NCBI GenBank assembly: GCA_965552055.1
Contig: CBEVQO010000004.1
Span: 169,833-233,832 of the forward strand
Direction: 5' to 3'
From: an uncultured bacterium
GTDB lineage: Bacteria > Hydrothermota > UBA3073 > NMUJ01 > CBEVQO01
Length of the DNA: 64,000 bases
Shown: one piece after another, positions 50,099 through 61,277 of the stretch
How the letters are laid out: the number at the start of each line of letters is the position of its first letter
How positions within the stretch are numbered: position 1 is the stretch's first letter
Program-made: the position numbers and the translations under genes
The notes under the pieces: model-generated
Database searches by the model: none
The model's input: only the letters and a program-made list of their open reading frames with translations
Told to the model about the DNA's origin: nothing

Positions 50099-51339
50099 TT
50101 CTTGGTGGAGGATTAACGGGGTTAAGTACAGGTTATCATTTGAAAAAGAAAGGATTCGAAGATTTTTTAATAATTGAAAAAGAAGAAAAACCGGGTGGAC
50201 TTTGTAAGTCCTATTTTAAAGATGGATTTACTTATGACTACGGAGGGCATTATTTACATTTTCGAACCGAATATGCGGAAAATCTTGTAAAAAATTTGTT
50301 GAAAAATAATTTGAAAAAACACGAAAGAAAATCCGTGATATATATAGATGGGAAGTTTATACCTTATCCCTTTCAACGAAATTTAAGAGGATTATCTTTT
50401 AAAAAAATATCAGAATGTCTATTTGGCTTAATTTTTGCCAGATTACAGAGGAAAAAAGCTTTGAATTTTAAAGACTGGATAATCCAAAATTATGGCTATG
50501 GGATGGCGAAATATTTTTTTATCCCGTATAATGAGAAGCTGTGGGGTGAACTCACTGAAATAACAACAGAATGGACAAAAAGATTTGTACCCGATACTTC
50601 TTTTTTAAAAATTTTAAAAAGTTTAGTGAAACCCGATTTAAAAGCAGGATATAATCCTGAATTTTATTATCCCGAAAGGGGAGGGATACAGGTATTGACT
50701 GATAAAATTTTTGAATACATAAAAGACAAAGTGAAGCTTAAAGAAAAAGTGGTAGAAATTGATATTGCCAAAAAGGAAGTGAGAACAAATAAAGGAATAT
50801 ATACTTACGAAAAATTGTTGAATACGATTCCTTTACCCGAATTTTTAAGGATTTTGAAAAATGTTCCTTTTCAATTTAAAGAAATAGGTGGAAAGTTGAA
50901 ATGTGTAAGCGTTTATGTTTATTGTATAGGTTATAGGGGAAAAACGCCACCTTATCACTGGATATATGTACCGCAAAAGGAATTTAAATTTTACAGGGTG
51001 GGATTACACAGTAACATTTCTGCGAATCTTTCGCCCGAAAATTGGCAGGCTATCACATGTGAATCGAGAGAAAATTTGAAATTTGACGAAATTATAGAAG
51101 GACTCAGAAAAATGAGGGTTATAGGAGAAGGAGAAACAAAAGATAACGGCAAGCTTTTTATAAAATATGCATATGTTATATATGATGAGTATCGCAGGTA
51201 TTTATCTTTTGTTTTTTCTTTTTTAGAGAGTAAAGATGTCTTTTGTGGTGGACGCTTTGGTAGATGGGAATATTCAACGATGGAAGATTCTTTAATCTTT
51301 GGTAAAAATTTTTCGGAATTTTACTTGAGAAATCCATAG
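50089..51339 (+). CDS. FAD-dependent oxidoreductase (HemY/UDP-galactopyranose mutase-like, glycan locus)
   Basis: GGGLTGL, GGLC, DYGGH, YNEKLW, FYYP..GG, GRFGRWEY. Confidence 0.85.
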   Translation: MLLILGGGLTGLSTGYHLKKKGFEDFLIIEKEEKPGGLCKSYFKDGFTYDYGGHYLHFRTEYAENLVKNLLKNNLKKHERKSVIYIDGKFIPYPFQRNLRGLSFKKISECLFGLIFARLQRKKALNFKDWIIQNYGYGMAKYFFIPYNEKLWGELTEITTEWTKRFVPDTSFLKILKSLVKPDLKAGYNPEFYYPERGGIQVLTDKIFEYIKDKVKLKEKVVEIDIAKKEVRTNKGIYTYEKLLNTIPLPEFLRILKNVPFQFKEIGGKLKCVSVYVYCIGYRGKTPPYHWIYVPQKEFKFYRVGLHSNISANLSPENWQAITCESRENLKFDEIIEGLRKMRVIGEGETKDNGKLFIKYAYVIYDEYRRYLSFVFSFLESKDVFCGGRFGRWEYSTMEDSLIFGKNFSEFYLRNP

Positions 51340-51360
51340 TTAAATTTTGCATTAAAAAGC

Positions 51361-51387
51361 TTGACAGACTTTTATTTTGATTATAAT
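51361..51387 (+). promoter_or_regulatory. Perfect TTGACA-N15-TATAAT promoter of the insert
   Basis: TTGACA 51361-66, TATAAT 51382-87. Confidence 0.7.
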
Positions 51388-51465
51388 AGGATGATGAGGG
51401 AGTTTTTAATTTGGGTTAATGTAATTAGGGAGAGGGGGACACATTTTAAAAGCATAAGAGATTTT

Positions 51466-51490
51466 ATCCTATCCTATCCTATCCTATCCT
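51466..51490 (+). repeat. (ATCCT)5 microsatellite
   Basis: Five exact tandem copies. Confidence 0.9.
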
Positions 51491-51647
51491 TGGTACTTTA
51501 GTGAAGGCGTTCCCTAGAGGCGTAAATTCATTTAGTGAGCCCCGACCCCTTTAGGGGATAGGGGACGGGCGCCATCCCGACCCGAATGGGGCAGGGCAGG
51601 TGAATGGGGTTTGTTCTTTGAGAGGTTAAAATTTTTAAAAGGAGGGT

Positions 51648-52229
51648 ATGATGTTAAGGAAGATAAGTCTTTTGGCAATTATCATAGTTTTTCCTTTGTT
51701 TGGAGAAGTAACTACGGAAATGACTACAATAGAAGTGAAAACAGACGAAGATTGGAAAGCTATAATTCAGCAACATCCTGAATGGGTGGCGCTTAAGAAC
51801 CCCGGTAAAGTTTATTTTGTAGAAATCATATTAAAAAATATTGATAAACTTGCGTTTGATTCAGAAGGTCACCGTAGAGCTTATTTAAATAAACTTAAAG
51901 CAGTTATAGCTACAGCTAAAACTCAAAATTGGCAAGGAGTAATTCAAAAGATTGAGAACGATCTTATACCACATGCAAAATCTTGGTTAACAAAAGAAAA
52001 TCATATAATTGCAGTAGAACTTTTACTTAAATTACAAAAGTTAACTTACGAAAAGCGGGCTACTACTTTATATGTTTGTGAAAGTTGTATAGAAGAGCTC
52101 TTTTCAAGAATGCTTGAAGAAGAACTTACGTGTAAAATAAAAATAAAGTTTTATTTCAAATGCAAATGGACTCAGAAAGGCGGTCTTAGTTGCGAGGTAG
52201 GAATAACAATTGAATGGGAACGGAAGTGA
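51648..52229 (+). CDS. Secreted hypothetical protein: helical body plus Cys-rich cationic beta-hairpin C-terminus
   Basis: SD AGGAGG; signal peptide; all 5 Cys fall in the last ~50 aa. Confidence 0.75.
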   Translation: MMLRKISLLAIIIVFPLFGEVTTEMTTIEVKTDEDWKAIIQQHPEWVALKNPGKVYFVEIILKNIDKLAFDSEGHRRAYLNKLKAVIATAKTQNWQGVIQKIENDLIPHAKSWLTKENHIIAVELLLKLQKLTYEKRATTLYVCESCIEELFSRMLEEELTCKIKIKFYFKCKWTQKGGLSCEVGITIEWERK

Positions 52230-52235
52230 AAAGCC

Positions 52236-53783
52236 ATGCAACATATTTTTATTAAATGCGCGGTTGGATGTTTAGTTATCCTCTCCGGGTGCTATTATTC
52301 TCTGGCTAAAAAAGAAGTAGGATGTGCATGTACTTTAGGTGTTGGAGGAGGAAATCTACAGGTAATAAGTAAAAGTGGACGAGTTTTATCATACCAGAAT
52401 ATTAAAGTATTCTTTAAAGATGCTGATCAAGAAGATAAAGCAAAAGAAGCATTGGAGTTGCTTAAATGTGGTAAAAAAACTATAGAAGAAATTACAGGAT
52501 TAAAAACAATACCTATAAATGTAAAAATAATTAAAAAGGGGAGCTTTATTGGGAAAGGAGATATCTGGGGTGTTTCGATTAAAACAGATGAAACATTTAA
52601 AAGTGATTTAGCTACTGTGATTCACGAGATAACAGAACAGACGATTAGAAGAGAGCAAATTAAGGGCAGGTTTGTTTTTGATGGGATAGCTGAGTATGTA
52701 AGGTTAATATTCCAAGAGAAGTACTTACCAACACTTTTTTATAAAGAAAATACAGCGTTTTATTTTTTATTTTATCCTCTTGATAGAGAAAAAAGATTTG
52801 ATATATGTAAATGGAAGGCGGTTTCTCCTATACTGCTCTTCAAGATGATTTTCTTACCGGGTAAAATGAAGGAAAAAGTAGCAATTAGTCAAGTAATTTA
52901 TTATTGGATTTCAGCGTATTTTTGGGCCAAAATGGTTGACAAATCAGGCAAAACAGATTTAATTCGTGCTTTTATTGCTAAAGTGTTAAGCTTACCTCCA
53001 AAACATCGAAAAATTGAGTCAGAAATTAAAATACTGGAAGAGCTTACAGGATTGGAAGTTCGAAAAGAGATGGTAATTTCTGTAAATGAAATGATAGAAA
53101 ATTTACCTAAATATTTTTTATTTTTTAAAATACCCAAGAATATGGTACCTATAAAAATAGAAGACGAAAAATATATTTTCATAGATAAGTATGAAGTTAC
53201 AAATGAAGAATTTGTAAAATTTCTTAACGAATGTGGCAATCAAATAGAAGGGGGGAAGCCATGGTTATGCGAAGAGTGTAATAGGGAAATAGAAAAAATA
53301 GGGAAGAGATATAAGGTTAAACCAGGGTACGAAAATTACCCCGTGAGATTTGTTACATGGTACGGAGCAAATGCTTATGCTAAGTGGGTTGGGAAGCGTT
53401 TACCTACAAAGGAAGAATGGATAAAGGCTGCTGTTGGAGATAAATATAAGAGATATCCATGGGGTAATAAATGGCAAAAAAATTATTGTAATTGGGGTGA
53501 ATACGGTAAATATGACAAGTATAAGGAGACATCTCCGGTAAATAGTTTCGAAAAAGGTAAGTCAGAATATGGATGCTATAATTTAGTGGGAAATGTAGCA
53601 GAGTGGGTTCAACCTTTTGAAGGAAATTACTTATATTTAGGTGGTTCATATATGGATGATAAAAATTTCGTAAATGTTTATTCTTTCGGAAAAGGCACTC
53701 CTAATAGCAGCTATTCATATGTAGGATTTAGATGTGCAAAAGACTTCCCAACAATTAACGAGTTGCGTGAATTACATAAATGA
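52236..53783 (+). CDS. Putative lipoprotein: gluzincin-like domain (HExxE) + FGE-sulfatase/SUMF1 domain
   Basis: LSGC lipobox; VIHEITE...FDGIAEY; IDKYEVTN, YPV..VTW, KRLPT.EEW, YPWG, GNVAEW, VGFRC. Confidence 0.75.
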   Translation: MQHIFIKCAVGCLVILSGCYYSLAKKEVGCACTLGVGGGNLQVISKSGRVLSYQNIKVFFKDADQEDKAKEALELLKCGKKTIEEITGLKTIPINVKIIKKGSFIGKGDIWGVSIKTDETFKSDLATVIHEITEQTIRREQIKGRFVFDGIAEYVRLIFQEKYLPTLFYKENTAFYFLFYPLDREKRFDICKWKAVSPILLFKMIFLPGKMKEKVAISQVIYYWISAYFWAKMVDKSGKTDLIRAFIAKVLSLPPKHRKIESEIKILEELTGLEVRKEMVISVNEMIENLPKYFLFFKIPKNMVPIKIEDEKYIFIDKYEVTNEEFVKFLNECGNQIEGGKPWLCEECNREIEKIGKRYKVKPGYENYPVRFVTWYGANAYAKWVGKRLPTKEEWIKAAVGDKYKRYPWGNKWQKNYCNWGEYGKYDKYKETSPVNSFEKGKSEYGCYNLVGNVAEWVQPFEGNYLYLGGSYMDDKNFVNVYSFGKGTPNSSYSYVGFRCAKDFPTINELRELHK

Positions 53784-53797
53784 ATAATAAAATGTGA

Positions 53798-55105
53798 GTG
53801 AAAGTGAATGATATTTGGCTGCTATTTCTTATTATCTACAATAACTTTAAATTCTCCTCACACTCTGATTTTACAAATACTATATTTTCTTATGATGAAA
53901 AAGCTTCTACTATAAATGAATTGAGAAATAAATTTGATGCGATATTAAGATACGATTTTAAAAATATTTCATTGCAAACTAAATTATTTGCTGAATTCAA
54001 ATATGATTTTGATACGCTTATTAATTATAAAATTCCATTTGATTTAATCTTTTGCTATATGCCAAACAAGAATTATTCTATTGGATTGGATTCACGATTC
54101 TATAAGTCTTCGAATGATTCACTAATTAAAATTTATTGGATAAATATGAAATATCGGTACAAAGATAATACAATAAAATTGTCTCAATTGAAATTTCGGG
54201 GTGTCAGAACCACAAGTTGTATTTTTGAAGGTAAAACTTATACCCTTGGTTACGCCCGCAAATTTACAGGTGCAAAAACTTATAAAAGTTTATTTGCTTC
54301 AAAAAGATTTAAAAAATTTACCATAAGGACGAATATTGAATCAAGAACATTTATGTGCGGAGTTTATGCATCTCACAATACCCCGTCAGGGAAAAGGAAG
54401 CTTAAATTTACTTTTACAGGGAATCATAACGAATTTAAATTTTATAAATATTCATCCTGCATAGGTTATGAAACCAGCAAACTAAATCTTGAAATAAACA
54501 CGCAGATTGATTCTCTAAAAGATTGCAATTTAAAATTAAAATCTAATCTAAAAGAGAAGCGTTTCAAAACAGATATTGCATATAGGGGATTTAGAAATTT
54601 TGAATATGGTGGGGTGATTTTTACAATTACGCCGAATGACTGGTTAGAAGCTACTTTTAGGGCTTCTATTACTCGCAGTTTTGATAGGGTCGATTCAATA
54701 GGTGTAGAACTTGGTCATTACTTTGAATCACTATTTTTGAATTATGGAGCAAGTCGAATTATAAAATTTAGCGAAGTAAAGAATATATTTTATGAGAATA
54801 TTGAAAAGGAATTTTATTTCAGCAATATGGGGCTGATTTTTTCTATCATTTTATCACAGGAAATTTGCAAGGAGAAATCATTTATGCATGAAATAAGTAT
54901 TACTTTTTTCCATAAGGATTTATATTTTGGAATAAATTACCAGAATGACATTAGTTCTGGTAGTTATACATGGCATGATGCATATTTCACATTGGGGTAT
55001 AATTTTAAAAAACATAAATTTGAACTTTGTTATTTCATTTCGGGAGAGAAAATTAAACATCCAGAAATGAAAACCTTCTCATTCTCATATTTGCATAAAT
55101 TTTGA
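53798..55105 (+). CDS. Putative outer-membrane beta-barrel hypothetical protein
   Basis: Strand-rich and aromatic-rich; C-terminal FSFSYLHKF; GTG start. Confidence 0.55.
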   Translation: MKVNDIWLLFLIIYNNFKFSSHSDFTNTIFSYDEKASTINELRNKFDAILRYDFKNISLQTKLFAEFKYDFDTLINYKIPFDLIFCYMPNKNYSIGLDSRFYKSSNDSLIKIYWINMKYRYKDNTIKLSQLKFRGVRTTSCIFEGKTYTLGYARKFTGAKTYKSLFASKRFKKFTIRTNIESRTFMCGVYASHNTPSGKRKLKFTFTGNHNEFKFYKYSSCIGYETSKLNLEINTQIDSLKDCNLKLKSNLKEKRFKTDIAYRGFRNFEYGGVIFTITPNDWLEATFRASITRSFDRVDSIGVELGHYFESLFLNYGASRIIKFSEVKNIFYENIEKEFYFSNMGLIFSIILSQEICKEKSFMHEISITFFHKDLYFGINYQNDISSGSYTWHDAYFTLGYNFKKHKFELCYFISGEKIKHPEMKTFSFSYLHKF

Positions 55106-55155
55106 AATTTTTCGGAATTTTACTTGACTACTCTCTAATTTGATTAAAATTTTTA

Positions 55156-56160
55156 ATGGAGGGTAAGATGAGGTTGTGGCATTATGTTGTGATTGCGTTG
55201 TTGGGGACGAGTCTGATGTGTTCTCGTGCGAAGCCTCCTACGAAAGAAGAAACCGAAGAAGAGTTCCTTTCTCAGCCTCAAAGGATATCCGAAGATGTTG
55301 AAAATTCTCTTGCAGGACAGGCACTTGCGGATTTTGCAGAAAAACAAGAAAGTTATAAAGGTAAAGTAAAACTTTTCTCAAAGGAATTCGCACTGAGCTA
55401 CTATAAGATTTTCAGAAAAAGTAAACAGGAGGAGTCTTATGGAACCTACGAATGGGATACCACATTTCATCAATGGGTGCTTGTTGACTCTACTTATCCT
55501 GCTGATGGCTGGCTCTTTAAATGGACATTTACAGATACCGCAGGCAACCCGCATTCAGCTGAATTTCTAATTGATTCTTTAAAATATCAGGTGATAGTTT
55601 ACGATGAGTATCCTGATTCAATACCAACGAGGGCTCATGCTTCTTTAAAAGTGGATAACTCCGAACTCGCCTGGATGTTATTCCATGCACAATATACAAC
55701 AGAAGGAATACCCGAAAAAGCAGACCTTACACTTGAATTAGTAGGCGTAATACAAGTTGGAATGGAGTTAGAACTTTCTGGTGTTACAACTGAAGAAATA
55801 CCCATCGGTAGCGTTCATTTCTGGATGATAGATTATAAACAAAACAATTATCGGATTGATTTAACTATAAAAGGTAATCAGGATTCTTCTATTGACATTA
55901 CACTTGAAGATAATAATGGCTGGAAACTCGTTATGGATATAAGTGCACCCGAGGCAGTTGTAGAAGCGAGTTATGCTGGAAAGAAATGGGAAGTCACAGG
56001 CGAAATCACACGCAAAGGAGCGCATGCTGCGGATATCGAAGGAACTATCTGGGACCCCGATGTGGAACCCGACCATGTATCTGAAATATGGGTTGTCTTT
56101 CCTGACGGGACAAAGAAATCTCTTGAAGATTATTTTAGCTTCCTTGAGGAAGAAGAGTAA
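55156..56160 (+). CDS. Hypothetical lipoprotein
   Basis: Signal with SLMC; acidic beta-rich body; promoter TTGACT-N15-TAAAAT at 55124-55150. Start may be 55168. Confidence 0.7.
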   Translation: MEGKMRLWHYVVIALLGTSLMCSRAKPPTKEETEEEFLSQPQRISEDVENSLAGQALADFAEKQESYKGKVKLFSKEFALSYYKIFRKSKQEESYGTYEWDTTFHQWVLVDSTYPADGWLFKWTFTDTAGNPHSAEFLIDSLKYQVIVYDEYPDSIPTRAHASLKVDNSELAWMLFHAQYTTEGIPEKADLTLELVGVIQVGMELELSGVTTEEIPIGSVHFWMIDYKQNNYRIDLTIKGNQDSSIDITLEDNNGWKLVMDISAPEAVVEASYAGKKWEVTGEITRKGAHAADIEGTIWDPDVEPDHVSEIWVVFPDGTKKSLEDYFSFLEEEE

Positions 56161-57935: not shown

Positions 57936-60900
57936 ATGATGATAATTTATTTGCTTACATTTAGTTTAATATGGCAGAAATTTCTGGATTTCGGTGGTAT
58001 TGATGAGGCACATGATGTAGCGGTGTCTTCCGATGGCTACATTTATGTGATAGGAGAAGACAGGAAAGATGTTATTTTATGTAAATTGACACCTCTTGGG
58101 GATACGGTTTTCACAAAGAGATTTGGCTCATCTGGACAGGATTTTGGTGAAGGGATTGCGATTGATAAGACGGACACTGCGATTATTTCCTGCGGCGGTT
58201 ATAACGGTTACTCTGATATTTTCCTTGCGAGACATAAAAAGGATGGGAGCAATGTTTTTCTCAATACTTATAATCATGGTGCACTTGAAATTGCAGAAGA
58301 TGTTTGTGTTGATGCCAATCGTTATATAGTATTATGTGGATGGGTGACACCAGCTATTCTTCAACAACATAATTTTCTTGTTAAAAAATTAAATCAGGCA
58401 GGTGCAACAATATGGACTAATACTTTCAAGATAATCAATTGCGACTCAAGATTAAGAAGTATTTCATGTGATAATACCGGGAATTATTATTACGCGGTAG
58501 GAAGTGTGTGGGATTCAACTGTTGCTCAATCTGACTGGATAATTTTGAAATTTGATTACAATGGAAACTGTATCGATACTTTGAGATGGGATGGCGGAAG
58601 CGATGATGATGCTTATGGGATTTGTGTTGATAAATCGGGTAAGATTGTAGTTGTCGGTGGAACTGAAATTTCCACCTGGGATATAAAAATAATGCGACTT
58701 TCTGAAAATCTTTCTATTTTATGGGAAAGAACATTTGATAATGGTGGATTTGATTGTGCTTATGGAGTATGTGTAGATGATAACAATAACATTTATATTT
58801 GTGGTGAAACTGAAATCGGGTCAGAAAGACATTTATTTGTCGCAAAATATGATAGTGCAGGAAATTTGCTTGACAATTTAGATATAGATGTGGGAGATAA
58901 AGCAAGGGCTTATGGTGTTGCTTACAAAGACGGAGAAATTTATATTACAGGTTTCAGAGAATTAGCAGGTGATACCGACTGGGTTATAGTTAAACTTTCA
59001 GATTTCACAATTTTAAAATTTACTGCAGATTTCGATGATACAAACAATTTCTATGCAAGAAAGCGCCTTTATACTATTGAAGTTGATTTATTCAATGTTT
59101 CTGGTGGAAATGCAATTGATACTGTGTATCTTGAAATTTTGAAAAATGGAAATGTTATCTTTCGCAGTATTTATAATAGAAAAAGCTCAGACCCTGACTC
59201 TTTTGAAATTTTAACAGGTGCTCAATATGTTATTGATAAGGACTCCTGTTACCATGTGATAACAGGTGATACTTTAAAGTGTTATTTCAGGTACTGGTTT
59301 GACTGGGATTTCCCCGGAGACACAGGACTTATCCTGCGTACTTATGCAGTTGATACAGCAGGACATAGAACAGCAAATTATAACTTATCATGCGATGTAG
59401 ATACTGCCATAAAAATCGATACATTTTATATAAATCCAGAAACAACAAATATAGGGGATACTATTATCTGGTATTACAAAATACTTTATAAACTTTCGCA
59501 AACGATAACGCCACCTGACTCCGAAATAGACACCGCTTTTCTACTTTTAGAAAATTTAGCACTTTGCAGGGATACGGTATTAAGAAAAGTCGTTTCTACG
59601 GATACTACACATGCCGAATATGTGAAAGGTGTTTATATTTATCATCCACAGGTTAAATTATCGCATCAAGGTGGATTTTATGATTTTACACAATTGAAAG
59701 ATACTGTTTATGTTCTTTCGCCGTTTAAAATAATTTCTTTATCTGCAGATTTTGATGATACAAATAATTTTTATGCGAGAAAAAGACTATATACAATAAA
59801 AACACAGGTAACGCATTATTTAGGGGGCGGTGCGATAGATACATTTTACTTGGAGATTATAAAAGGAAATATTATCCTTCGCAGTATTTATAATAGAAAA
59901 AGTAGCGATCCGGATTCTTTTGAAATTTTAGTTGGTTCTCAATATGTTATTGATCAAGATTCTTGCTATCATCTAATATTAGATGATACTTTGAAATGTT
60001 ATTTCAGATATTGGTTTGATTGGGATTTTCCTGGGGATACAGGCATTATATTACGGGTTTGTGCGGTAGATAGCTTCTCGAATCGTAGTAAATGGGATAC
60101 AATATATTGCGATGTAGATACTGCCATAAAAATTGATACATTTTATATGTATCCTGAAAGTGTATTGATACTTGACAAAGTTTACTGGCATTGCGAAATA
60201 CTTTACAGCATGTCAAATTCAATCGCACCTCCTGATTCCGAAATAGATACCTGTTTCTTATTCCTTGAAAACTTATCTTCGAAAAGAGATACAGTTTTGA
60301 GAAAGTCAATCTTTACAGACAGTTTATTTGCTGAGATTTTACCTGGTACTTATATTTATCACCCACAAGTTGTTCTTGCGCATCAAGGTGGATATTTTGA
60401 TTTTGTTCAATTCAAAGATACAATTTATGTCTCTTTAACAAAAGTAAATCCTATCTCTCCGCTTGATTCTTCGGCACTCAATACACCCACACCTCTCTTT
60501 GTATGGCATGTGGTACCTTCTGCAAATTATTACCACTTACAGATAGCAACTGATACTCTTTTTGTAAAATCTTTAATTCTCGATACAGCAGGGATTACAG
60601 ACACCTTTTTTGCATTGAAAGATACTTTGGAGGATGGGATTTATTACTGGCGAGTAAGAGCTTACGATACCCTTGGCAATACCGGTGAATTTTCAAATAA
60701 AGTTATGTTCTGGATAGATACTCATTCACCTGAAATTTTAAAAGTATATTACGATTATTATCAGGATTCTTTACCTAATTCCGTTATTTTCTATGCTATT
60801 GTTCGAGATAACTTTTGTGTAGATTCCGTATGGTTTCACTATCTCCCGGGATGGGAGCAGTGCGATACTTTTAAAATCTTAGAAATGCAATTGGAAGATA

Positions 60901-61277
60901 CGGTGTGGAAAACGCCGCCGATAATTTTTGAAAGCTCTCCTTGTATGATTTATTTTGTTAGAGCAAAGGATAAGGCAAATAATTTTGCATATTCAGATAC
61001 CGGTTTCATCGATGTTACCTTTGAATCTATCACAAAGCCAGAAATAGAGATATATCCTACAATTGTTAGAAATGTTATCAATTTAAAACTTCCAAAGAAT
61101 AAAATTGCACGATTTGAAATTTATGATTTAACTGGAAGAAAAATCAAAGAGTTAAAAATACTTTCCGATGGAAAGGTGCAAAAGGTTAATTTGAAATACT
61201 TACCAGCAGGGATTTATTTTGTTAAGATGAGATGCGAAAATTCAGAAAGAATTTTCAAGATCCTTGTTATAAAATGA
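57936..61277 (+). CDS. Large T9SS-cargo surface protein: beta-propeller, two ~240-aa tandem domains, Ig/FN3-like domains, CTD
   Basis: Propeller repeats; duplicated ADFDDTNNFYARKRLYTI module; YYWRVRAYD; C-terminal IYP...IYDLTGR...LPAGIYFV...KILVIK. Confidence 0.8.
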   Translation: MMIIYLLTFSLIWQKFLDFGGIDEAHDVAVSSDGYIYVIGEDRKDVILCKLTPLGDTVFTKRFGSSGQDFGEGIAIDKTDTAIISCGGYNGYSDIFLARHKKDGSNVFLNTYNHGALEIAEDVCVDANRYIVLCGWVTPAILQQHNFLVKKLNQAGATIWTNTFKIINCDSRLRSISCDNTGNYYYAVGSVWDSTVAQSDWIILKFDYNGNCIDTLRWDGGSDDDAYGICVDKSGKIVVVGGTEISTWDIKIMRLSENLSILWERTFDNGGFDCAYGVCVDDNNNIYICGETEIGSERHLFVAKYDSAGNLLDNLDIDVGDKARAYGVAYKDGEIYITGFRELAGDTDWVIVKLSDFTILKFTADFDDTNNFYARKRLYTIEVDLFNVSGGNAIDTVYLEILKNGNVIFRSIYNRKSSDPDSFEILTGAQYVIDKDSCYHVITGDTLKCYFRYWFDWDFPGDTGLILRTYAVDTAGHRTANYNLSCDVDTAIKIDTFYINPETTNIGDTIIWYYKILYKLSQTITPPDSEIDTAFLLLENLALCRDTVLRKVVSTDTTHAEYVKGVYIYHPQVKLSHQGGFYDFTQLKDTVYVLSPFKIISLSADFDDTNNFYARKRLYTIKTQVTHYLGGGAIDTFYLEIIKGNIILRSIYNRKSSDPDSFEILVGSQYVIDQDSCYHLILDDTLKCYFRYWFDWDFPGDTGIILRVCAVDSFSNRSKWDTIYCDVDTAIKIDTFYMYPESVLILDKVYWHCEILYSMSNSIAPPDSEIDTCFLFLENLSSKRDTVLRKSIFTDSLFAEILPGTYIYHPQVVLAHQGGYFDFVQFKDTIYVSLTKVNPISPLDSSALNTPTPLFVWHVVPSANYYHLQIATDTLFVKSLILDTAGITDTFFALKDTLEDGIYYWRVRAYDTLGNTGEFSNKVMFWIDTHSPEILKVYYDYYQDSLPNSVIFYAIVRDNFCVDSVWFHYLPGWEQCDTFKILEMQLEDTVWKTPPIIFESSPCMIYFVRAKDKANNFAYSDTGFIDVTFESITKPEIEIYPTIVRNVINLKLPKNKIARFEIYDLTGRKIKELKILSDGKVQKVNLKYLPAGIYFVKMRCENSERIFKILVIK

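Follow-up and report, generated by a model that had tools for sequence, protein, structure and literature searches.

Three adjacent open reading frames (ORFs) of an uncultured Hydrothermota bacterium raise the question of whether they form one secreted system and what such a system would do. They lie in a stretch of 64,000 nucleotides (assembly GCA_965552055.1, contig CBEVQO010000004.1, positions 169,833 to 233,832 of the forward strand), referred to here as the window, and are arranged as follows:

51648..52229, forward strand: ORF1, 193 residues, the variable member of the pair described below, predicted to be secreted
52236..53783, forward strand: ORF2, 515 residues, the conserved member of the pair
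53798..55105, forward strand: ORF3, 435 residues, an orphan, beta-barrel-like, present in this cassette only

The original prediction had described ORF1 as the precursor of a cationic beta-hairpin peptide, ORF2 as a lipoprotein that processes or binds it and ORF3 as an outer-membrane conduit. The sequence motifs on which it was built were all found in place in the three proteins. We tentatively read ORF1 and ORF2, without ORF3, as a polymorphic conflict module in which a variable secreted effector is encoded together with a broad protective peptidase or binder (probability roughly 0.38).

The conserved unit is the ORF1-ORF2 pair

The host genome (G000; 2.23 Mb, 97% complete) carries a single copy of each of the three genes. 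Homologues were searched for in 272 genomes of the phylum (271 besides the host), including those labelled WOR-3 or Candidatus Stahlbacteria. Twenty-five distinct ORF1s were found paired, each directly upstream of an ORF2 homologue. With profile A2, built before any ORF2 information was used, ORF2 was the next family gene at 8/8 non-self type I loci (signal peptide and beta-hairpin tail, as in ORF1 here). With the improved profile A5 it was next in 13/13 type I ORFs of the 272 genomes, a count that is partly circular and whose pairs are not independent because a single family supplies most of them. Two further WOR-3 families, those of the host genome and of G209, also have the pair, and outside the phylum it occurs in a Cloacimonadia genome (1/201 of its phylum) and in a third phylum (1/26). 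The conserved unit is the pair, not the trio, and the expected co-occurrence of ORF1 and ORF2 as a dedicated pair was borne out.

ORF2 was also found without ORF1. Among the close ORF2 clusters bearing a formylglycine-generating enzyme (FGE) domain, 21 had ORF1, 12 stood alone (12/33 with visible upstream DNA) and 3 had their upstream region unseen, and 4/13 genomes with a close ORF2 had no hairpin-type, signal-bearing ORF1. Linked and lone copies interleave on an ORF2 tree of 56 rows, from which 37 distant clusters were left out, and at least 8 changes are forced by well-supported branches.

ORF3 starts 15 nt after ORF2 and ends in Phe, a C-terminal aromatic residue. It contains 13 alternating strand-like windows versus 7.0 ± 2.1 in shuffled sequences, 4/500 shuffles reaching 13. 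No Pfam, NCBIfam, PADLOC or PDB match was obtained for it, a single-sequence query detected no homologue in the 271 other phylum genomes, and the only ORF3-like ORFs among the fetched loci were copies of this locus. Where downstream DNA of other ORF1-ORF2 pairs was available, unrelated genes follow. ORF3 is a one-off passenger or local accessory outside the conserved system. A three-gene system with ORF3 as obligate outer-membrane conduit would fit the position of this barrel-like gene inside the same insertion and immediately behind ORF2, and related carriers with other cargoes do precede small barrel-like genes. Given the missing homologues and the unrelated genes behind other pairs, we regard it as very improbable, and as a general rule the obligate three-gene model is largely refuted. 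The proposed co-occurrence of all three genes stands for ORF1 and ORF2 and falls for ORF3 (1/272 genomes), and with it falls the idea of a conserved conduit.

Exchange of ORF1 and insertion of the cassette

Comparison of related loci revealed how the pair changes. Between L086 and L052, identity is 97% in the upstream DNA, 91% over ORF2 and the downstream DNA and 78% in the ORF1 promoter/signal region, and the mature ORF1s are unalignable. ORF1 is swapped in place at fixed loci while ORF2 stays steady at 76-91% identity. The ratio of nonsynonymous to synonymous substitution rates (dN/dS; 5 pairs each) lay at 0.07-0.24 in ORF2, at 0-0.5 in the ORF1 body and at 0.5-1.0 in its tail; these values rest on few codons and on 5/7 ORF2 pairs computed and do not bear on positive selection. 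Between L089 and L148, 1 change was found in 75 body codons and 15 in 38 tail codons. Replacement of the tail is independent of the body, and no other part of ORF1 varies as much, as had been anticipated.

Such a pair might consist of a peptidase and its cognate inhibitor, ORF1 being co-transcribed with ORF2 and its hairpin His/Cys closing the ORF2 metal site in the manner of potempins. According to the excerpt available of PMC9890683, potempins are likewise encoded by a small gene directly upstream of the peptidase gene. An inhibitor is useless without its enzyme, which fits an ORF1 never found alone and a domain that works alone in other phyla, and the invariant Cys and frequent His of the tail could be metal ligands. 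However, wholesale replacement of ORF1 next to the steady ORF2 would be strange if ORF1 locked a conserved active site, the gene is retained beside ORF2s that have lost the motif, and potempins are beta-barrel lipoproteins, ORF1 being neither. We consider an inhibitor unlikely.

The three ORFs are bracketed by an exact direct repeat that the original prediction had missed:

51306..51328, forward strand: left 23-bp direct repeat, overlapping the 3' end of the FAD-oxidoreductase gene that precedes the cassette
55105..55127, forward strand: right 23-bp direct repeat, ahead of the next gene

The repeat has 2 copies in the whole genome, even at 3 mismatches allowed. In a chance control, 400 random placements gave 3 exact matches of at least 18 nt, two of which were 23 nt long and may be the ORF1-ORF3 cassette itself. 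In one of four public runs compared, a 481-nt contig (depth 6.8) joins 51305 to 55105, omitting 3,799 bases, with 23 letters common to both ends; long pieces of the filled form were present in public runs X1 and X2. The ORF1-ORF3 cassette is an insertion of about 3.8 kb with a precise empty-site allele. No integrase was found inside it. Another cassette of the family is inserted behind a 5S rRNA gene, the rRNA 3' end being duplicated downstream, and 9/11 other cassettes tested had no flanking repeat of at least 15 nt. An 18-bp repeat around the L098 cassette was rejected as a target duplication because it is one of a local family of repeats. At 52152 and 52401, loose read ends that suggested a swapped-tail allele were 18-nt chance matches of unrelated contigs.

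The cassette brings its own promoter/leader block of about 240 nt:

51352..51593, forward strand: promoter/leader block with GC-rich palindromes; a second copy, 83% identical, lies at G000:C2:208058-208293
51361..51387, forward strand: promoter-like TTGACA-N15-TATAAT, of putative function, recognised by sequence and by the genome-wide spacer count

The second copy stands before two unrelated genes, for a 174-residue protein and a TPR-like protein, and both copies precede exported-looking genes. The block had no Rfam match and a folding z of -0.39; it is possibly a small mobile or regulatory element. Throughout the host genome, TTGAC(A/T)...TAnAAT pairs numbered 289 at a 15-nt spacer, 55 at 16, 25 at 17 and 4-26 elsewhere. 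The organism seems to use an unusually short sigma70-type promoter spacing, and a standard scanner misses such sites.

Directly 3' of the cassette, a gene at 55156-56160 encodes a probable lipoprotein of 334 residues without a confident Pfam match, and the right repeat overlaps a TTGAC upstream of this gene. Further on, 57936-61277 encodes a 1113-residue protein that has beta-propeller repeats and, at its C-terminus, a sorting domain for type IX secretion.

Sequence, fold and family of the two proteins

ORF1 is divided as follows:

51648..51704, forward strand: signal-peptide-like stretch, residues 1-19, from hydropathy and common to homologues, with a putative cleavage site
51792..52058, forward strand: four-helix bundle, about residues 49-137, conserved carrier domain, from AlphaFold helices and a structural match
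52077..52124, forward strand: CxxC (144-147) to EEE (157-159), present here, not family-conserved
52125..52226, forward strand: beta-hairpin tail, residues 160-193, with C182, the last Cys, invariant in the family

The N-terminus is hydrophobic and has no lipobox; residues 20-143 are Cys-free and are followed by C144-E-S-C147, E157-E159 and the 34-residue tail. The tail alternates in register, with one face reading LCIIFFC..LCVIIW and the other TKKKYKK..SEGTEE (net charge +5). No Pfam, NCBIfam or PADLOC model matched ORF1. Single-sequence searches with ORF1 and with the N-terminal half of ORF2 recovered only the window's own copies, and nothing significant among 60 near relatives. A search with ORF1 of 1.84 billion representatives gave 10 non-self matches, 9 of them real; the tenth, P0002, was rejected as a repeat-protein artefact. 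The homologues have a common helical core and a differing Cys-containing C-terminus, and three proteins of one 90% cluster, more than 90% alike in the core, carry unrelated Cys-rich tails. In these three (P0007, P0014 and P0015; longest contig 108,614 bases each) the tails differ after a common motif.

The first ORF1 profile found 18 places in 12/272 phylum genomes and A5 found 28 places in 18/272. Besides the 13 type I ORFs, A5 found 7 hairpin ORFs that lack a signal peptide and precede a gene for a small membrane protein or lipoprotein, 2 ORFs with signal and bundle and without hairpin, and 6 whose helical cargoes are larger or Cys-rich and which have small genes for membrane or barrel-like proteins behind them; the partner types of these other cargoes were judged from sequence and had no Pfam support. 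The signal-less subfamily (L040, G134:C151, 1502-3557; L180, L181, L190 and L187) precedes a membrane protein of 140-160 residues, and G134 has three signal-less ORF1s in tandem, a layout that resembles toxin/immunity. The four-helix carrier with Cys-rich hydrophobic C-termini (L041, 4590-6104; L043, 3-1540; L046, 4857-5737) is followed by a small membrane protein. In L042 (5235-7712), L044 (1830-3968) and L045 (4943-7045) the carrier is part of lipoprotein-like proteins whose C-terminal domain is larger; one or two barrel-like genes of 170-195 residues come next, and two of these three are broken into two frames. An ORF1-type bundle was also seen at the C-terminus of a large GLUG-repeat protein.

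An alignment of 33 ORF1 sequences showed the last Cys to be invariant and the tail His nearly so. A His precedes the Cys in 24/25 paired type I tails, the sole tail without His being that of the window's own ORF1, and an H-x3/4-C knuckle is present in 19/25, many having two. The cationic character of the hairpin proved particular to a few members (median net charge 0; at least +3 in 3/33 homologues). Cleavage after EEE, which the original prediction had put forward for checking, was not supported, an EEE-like run preceding the tail in 5/33 and CxxC not being conserved. Using this alignment, AlphaFold predicted mature ORF1 to be one compact domain of five strands and six helices that includes the hairpin (predicted local distance difference test, pLDDT, 89.8; predicted template modelling score, pTM, 0.84); the single-sequence fold was poor (pLDDT 53.5). 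The model speaks against the free-standing hairpin assumed originally, an outcome that the original prediction had itself named as counting against it, although a latent pro-form would look alike.

The best structural match of the four-helix bundle was residues 1319-1411 of 7nsn (VIA-align; Z 8.0, root-mean-square deviation 1.9, 85 residues aligned). For the whole alpha/beta fold VIA-align gave helical-bundle neighbours and no match, which does not imply that the fold is novel. Foldseek gave no match to the PDB and viral libraries at E <= 0.001. A presumed resemblance to the FIMAH domain was not supported, the profile (PF22888) giving no match to ORF1 even at E 1.

The knuckles may resemble a His/Cys metal ribbon. 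ORF1 could accordingly be a variable periplasmic or surface protein outside any conflict (a His/Cys metal binder, an adhesin or a fibre subunit), with ORF2 as its handler or anchor. The frequency of the knuckle and the compact single-domain fold predicted for ORF1 would suit such a role, and a similar bundle of a GH92 mannosidase aids binding of cell-wall extract, as stated in the excerpt of PMC10167667. However, conflict genes are the more typical setting for fast exchange of alleles, for tandem arrays and for insertions of the presence/absence kind, and the ORF1 of the window is without both His. A role of this kind is in our view distinctly unlikely.

In ORF2 the following parts were recognised:

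52236..52292, forward strand: lipoprotein-type signal with LSGC at 16-19; residues 20-51 after it are a remnant of the family N-terminal domain
52395..53090, forward strand: zincin-like domain, with HEITE at 52623-52637 (residues 130-134) and DGIAEY at 52680-52697 (149-154)
53175..53741, forward strand: FGE-sulfatase (C-type-lectin-fold) domain, PF03781, E 1.7e-36 (Pfam match at residues 314-502)

A strict lipobox is present in 2/48 homologous ORF2 N-termini, most having a plain signal peptide and a longer N-domain. The remnant scores 9.5 bits against the family N-domain (at most 3.6 in 999 shuffles). That the lipobox is an artefact of a truncated N-domain was considered and rejected, as the remnant begins after C19 and a few homologues are lipoproteins; from its sequence, a genuine lipobox is plausible. 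By sequence, Pfam gave no match to the zincin-like domain. In predicted structure, residues 20-295 (Atlas model) matched Peptidase_MA_2 proteins with template modelling (TM) scores of 0.57-0.61, the best over 220 residues, both sides of the comparison being predicted structures. The N-terminal half is predicted to have a zincin fold and to be a metallopeptidase.

This domain was found at 33 genome loci and 63 metagenome loci, and in 15/272 phylum genomes (one marginal), with up to 6 matches per genome. Clustering at 95% gave 92 clusters, 47 close and 45 distant, the latter from Verrucomicrobiota, Planctomycetota, Bipolaricaulota and others. HExxE is kept in 87/92 clusters, and Asp takes the third ligand position in 86/87 of these; HExxE was absent from the scan patterns and the DG motif was part of them, while the hidden Markov model searches did not select for DG. 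The acidic ligand lies in a (D/E)G.A.Y helix, mostly 17-22 residues after the HExx. helix. Judged by sequence, HExxE is a hallmark of the family, not a sign of decay. The G209-type lineage has lost the motif His-Glu and has kept ORF1 and purifying selection (dN/dS 0.13). Several variants stand beside the main type: L169 (G137:C124, 825-2471) is a homologue with canonical HExxH (HEWTH in one tree member) that offers a natural control for the HExxE site, L103 (135-2186) has a tandem ORF1-ORF2-ORF1 in which ORF2 lacks the FGE domain and has a degenerate motif, and in L077 (4351-5658) a Planctomycete HExxE homologue carries a fused PDZ domain, an arrangement common among secreted proteases. In L075 and L079 (labelled Bipolaricaulota/Thermotogae) the gene that ends 14 nt before a distant HExxE gene encodes a hydrophobic, Gly-rich protein in which a strand segment has two Cys; the peptidase domain may there have a different partner. 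L202 was rejected as a spurious match within a large unrelated protein, and no relative of the ORF2 domain was found in viral contigs.

The FGE fusion is confined to the close group. Ten close clusters are without FGE (1 with ORF1, 7 alone, 2 with upstream unseen), and 1 cut cluster has ORF1. In the window the profile scored 126.6 bits against a curated cut-off of 23.3. The domain reads GGSYMDDK and has no Cys at the catalytic position, the catalytic Cys pair of the enzyme being placed, as we presume, after the GGSY/F strand. ORF2 would not be a catalytic formylglycine-generating enzyme. A diversity-generating retroelement, suggested by Avd-like bundle matches and the FGE domain, was rejected, as there is no RVT_1 in the genome; a second copy of the ORF2 3' end (template repeat) was found neither in the genome nor in any of the loci tested (25/25).

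A conserved peptidase-like protein next to a fast-changing tail raises the alternative that ORF2 cuts ORF1 and liberates an active peptide, the His/Cys hairpin, which would serve as an antimicrobial, a signal or a metal binder. A single generic enzyme for a range of variable substrates, some of them tandem ORF1s that precede the same ORF2, is how peptide-maturation clusters are usually organised, and the excerpt of PMC7159879 describes a zincin with a small, fast-diverging precursor in FxSxx-COOH systems. The retention of HExxE and the high dN/dS of the independently replaced tail point in the same direction. Against this, there is no conserved cleavage motif before the core, the tail is predicted to fold into the ORF1 domain, the lineage without the motif His-Glu keeps the pair under purifying selection, and many ORF2 copies are without a substrate gene. 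We hold maturation to be rather unlikely.

A candidate conflict module and its relation to known systems

The reading that we favour is a mobile conflict pair. Its likeness to effector-protection modules follows from a variable exported ORF1 that is never seen alone, a steady multicopy partner that often is, in-place exchange, mobility and a reused carrier, the four-helix domain recurring with other C-terminal cargoes that each have their own small downstream gene. ORF1 would leave the cell in a folded, latent form, and its exchanged surface, mostly the hairpin, would be the part active against competing microbes. Protection of the cell would fall to ORF2, predicted to be a metallopeptidase of the envelope and equipped with a lectin-fold domain; it would bind ORF1-type proteins and likely cut them. 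Since ORF2 does not co-vary with ORF1, any protection would need to be broad, through proteolysis or through binding of a common feature. ORF2 may recognise the common His/Cys or the fold instead of one sequence, and lone ORF2 copies would therefore be broad shields.

Several observations weigh against this reading. No dedicated export gene travels with the pair, VipB, the one marker family used for type VI secretion, had no match in the 97% complete genome, and no family or fold match to a toxin domain was obtained for ORF1, whose tail is not cationic as a rule. At 76-83% identity between two ORF2s, their ORF1 cores are only 23-38% identical, and in one case two unlike ORF1s precede the same ORF2; the immunity given by the FGE-domain protein Tsi3 is cognate-specific in the excerpt of bioRxiv 10.1101/2021.05.21.445229. 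The conflict reading is compatible only with a shield that is broad and enzymatic. The linkage asymmetry fits an inhibitor equally well. Finally, none of the 45 distant HExxE clusters has ORF1 (39 with visible upstream DNA), and lone ORF2 copies may therefore be ordinary secreted peptidases.

More boldly, the pair may represent a new class of secreted conflict system of uncultured bacteria from sediments and vents, in which a four-helix carrier bears at least 4 kinds of variable cargo with their own partner types and a His/Glu/Asp zincin with a lectin-fold domain releases, cross-links or destroys a His/Cys hairpin. We consider this improbable; if true, it would be a new source of beta-hairpin antimicrobials and of new peptidase chemistry. 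If the conflict reading is true, the pair would be a concrete antagonism module of this lineage with broad rather than lock-and-key protection. Whatever its role, a zincin family with HExxE...D in place of HExxH...E in nearly all members offers a direct test of the variability of the zincin metal site, and the 25 natural ORF1 alleles are a ready substrate panel. As the original prediction had surmised, no description of the pair was found in the literature searched, which covered few subscription journals and left supplementary tables outside its scope, and the papers found on HExxE and peptidases use HEXXE for other families. The two protein families, also not found in Pfam and PDB, lie outside the libraries and papers searched and form a mobile, diversifying pair in WOR-3 and two little-known phyla.

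In strict terms the pair does not belong to proteins with the gluzincin motif, Tsi3/type VI secretion systems, potempins, diversity-generating retroelements or FIMAH proteins. Relative to gluzincins (clan MA), the second His of HExxH is Glu and the third ligand Glu is Asp across the ORF2 family, whereas the predicted fold (TM 0.61 to Peptidase_MA_2, PF13485) and the HExx. helix with a downstream acidic ligand are alike. The bundle of the NnGH92 mannosidase (PDB 7nsn), the best match to ORF1, has 8% identity and a Z of 8 within the generic helical-bundle range; its own nearest structural homologue is reported to be the enterocin A immunity protein (PMC10167667, excerpt). Potempins, beta-barrel lipoprotein inhibitors specific for their own peptidase, differ from the alpha/beta ORF1 that is exchanged against a steady peptidase. 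The potempin/KLIKK-peptidase pairs of Tannerella forsythia (PMC9890683, in the part available) resemble the present pair in that the gene immediately before the peptidase gene encodes a small exported protein. FxSxx-COOH systems (PMC7159879, excerpt) likewise have a zincin-like peptidase gene adjoining a small, rapidly diverging protein. Unlike in those systems, both partners here have signal peptides, variation is greatest at the C-terminus, and a folded four-helix domain, HExxE...D and a fused FGE domain are present. Polymorphic toxins and Tse3-Tsi3 differ in that here the type VI marker was not found, the signals are of the Sec type, the partner has a zincin-like domain and does not co-vary, and no known toxin domain was recognised. 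They are alike in having a variable gene followed by an FGE partner without the catalytic Cys, lone partners, mobile cassettes and a carrier with exchangeable cargo. In the excerpts of the respective sources, Tsi3 is an immunity protein (bioRxiv 10.1101/2021.05.21.445229) and FGE domains are proposed recognition modules in conflict systems (PMC7159879, PMC8195603).

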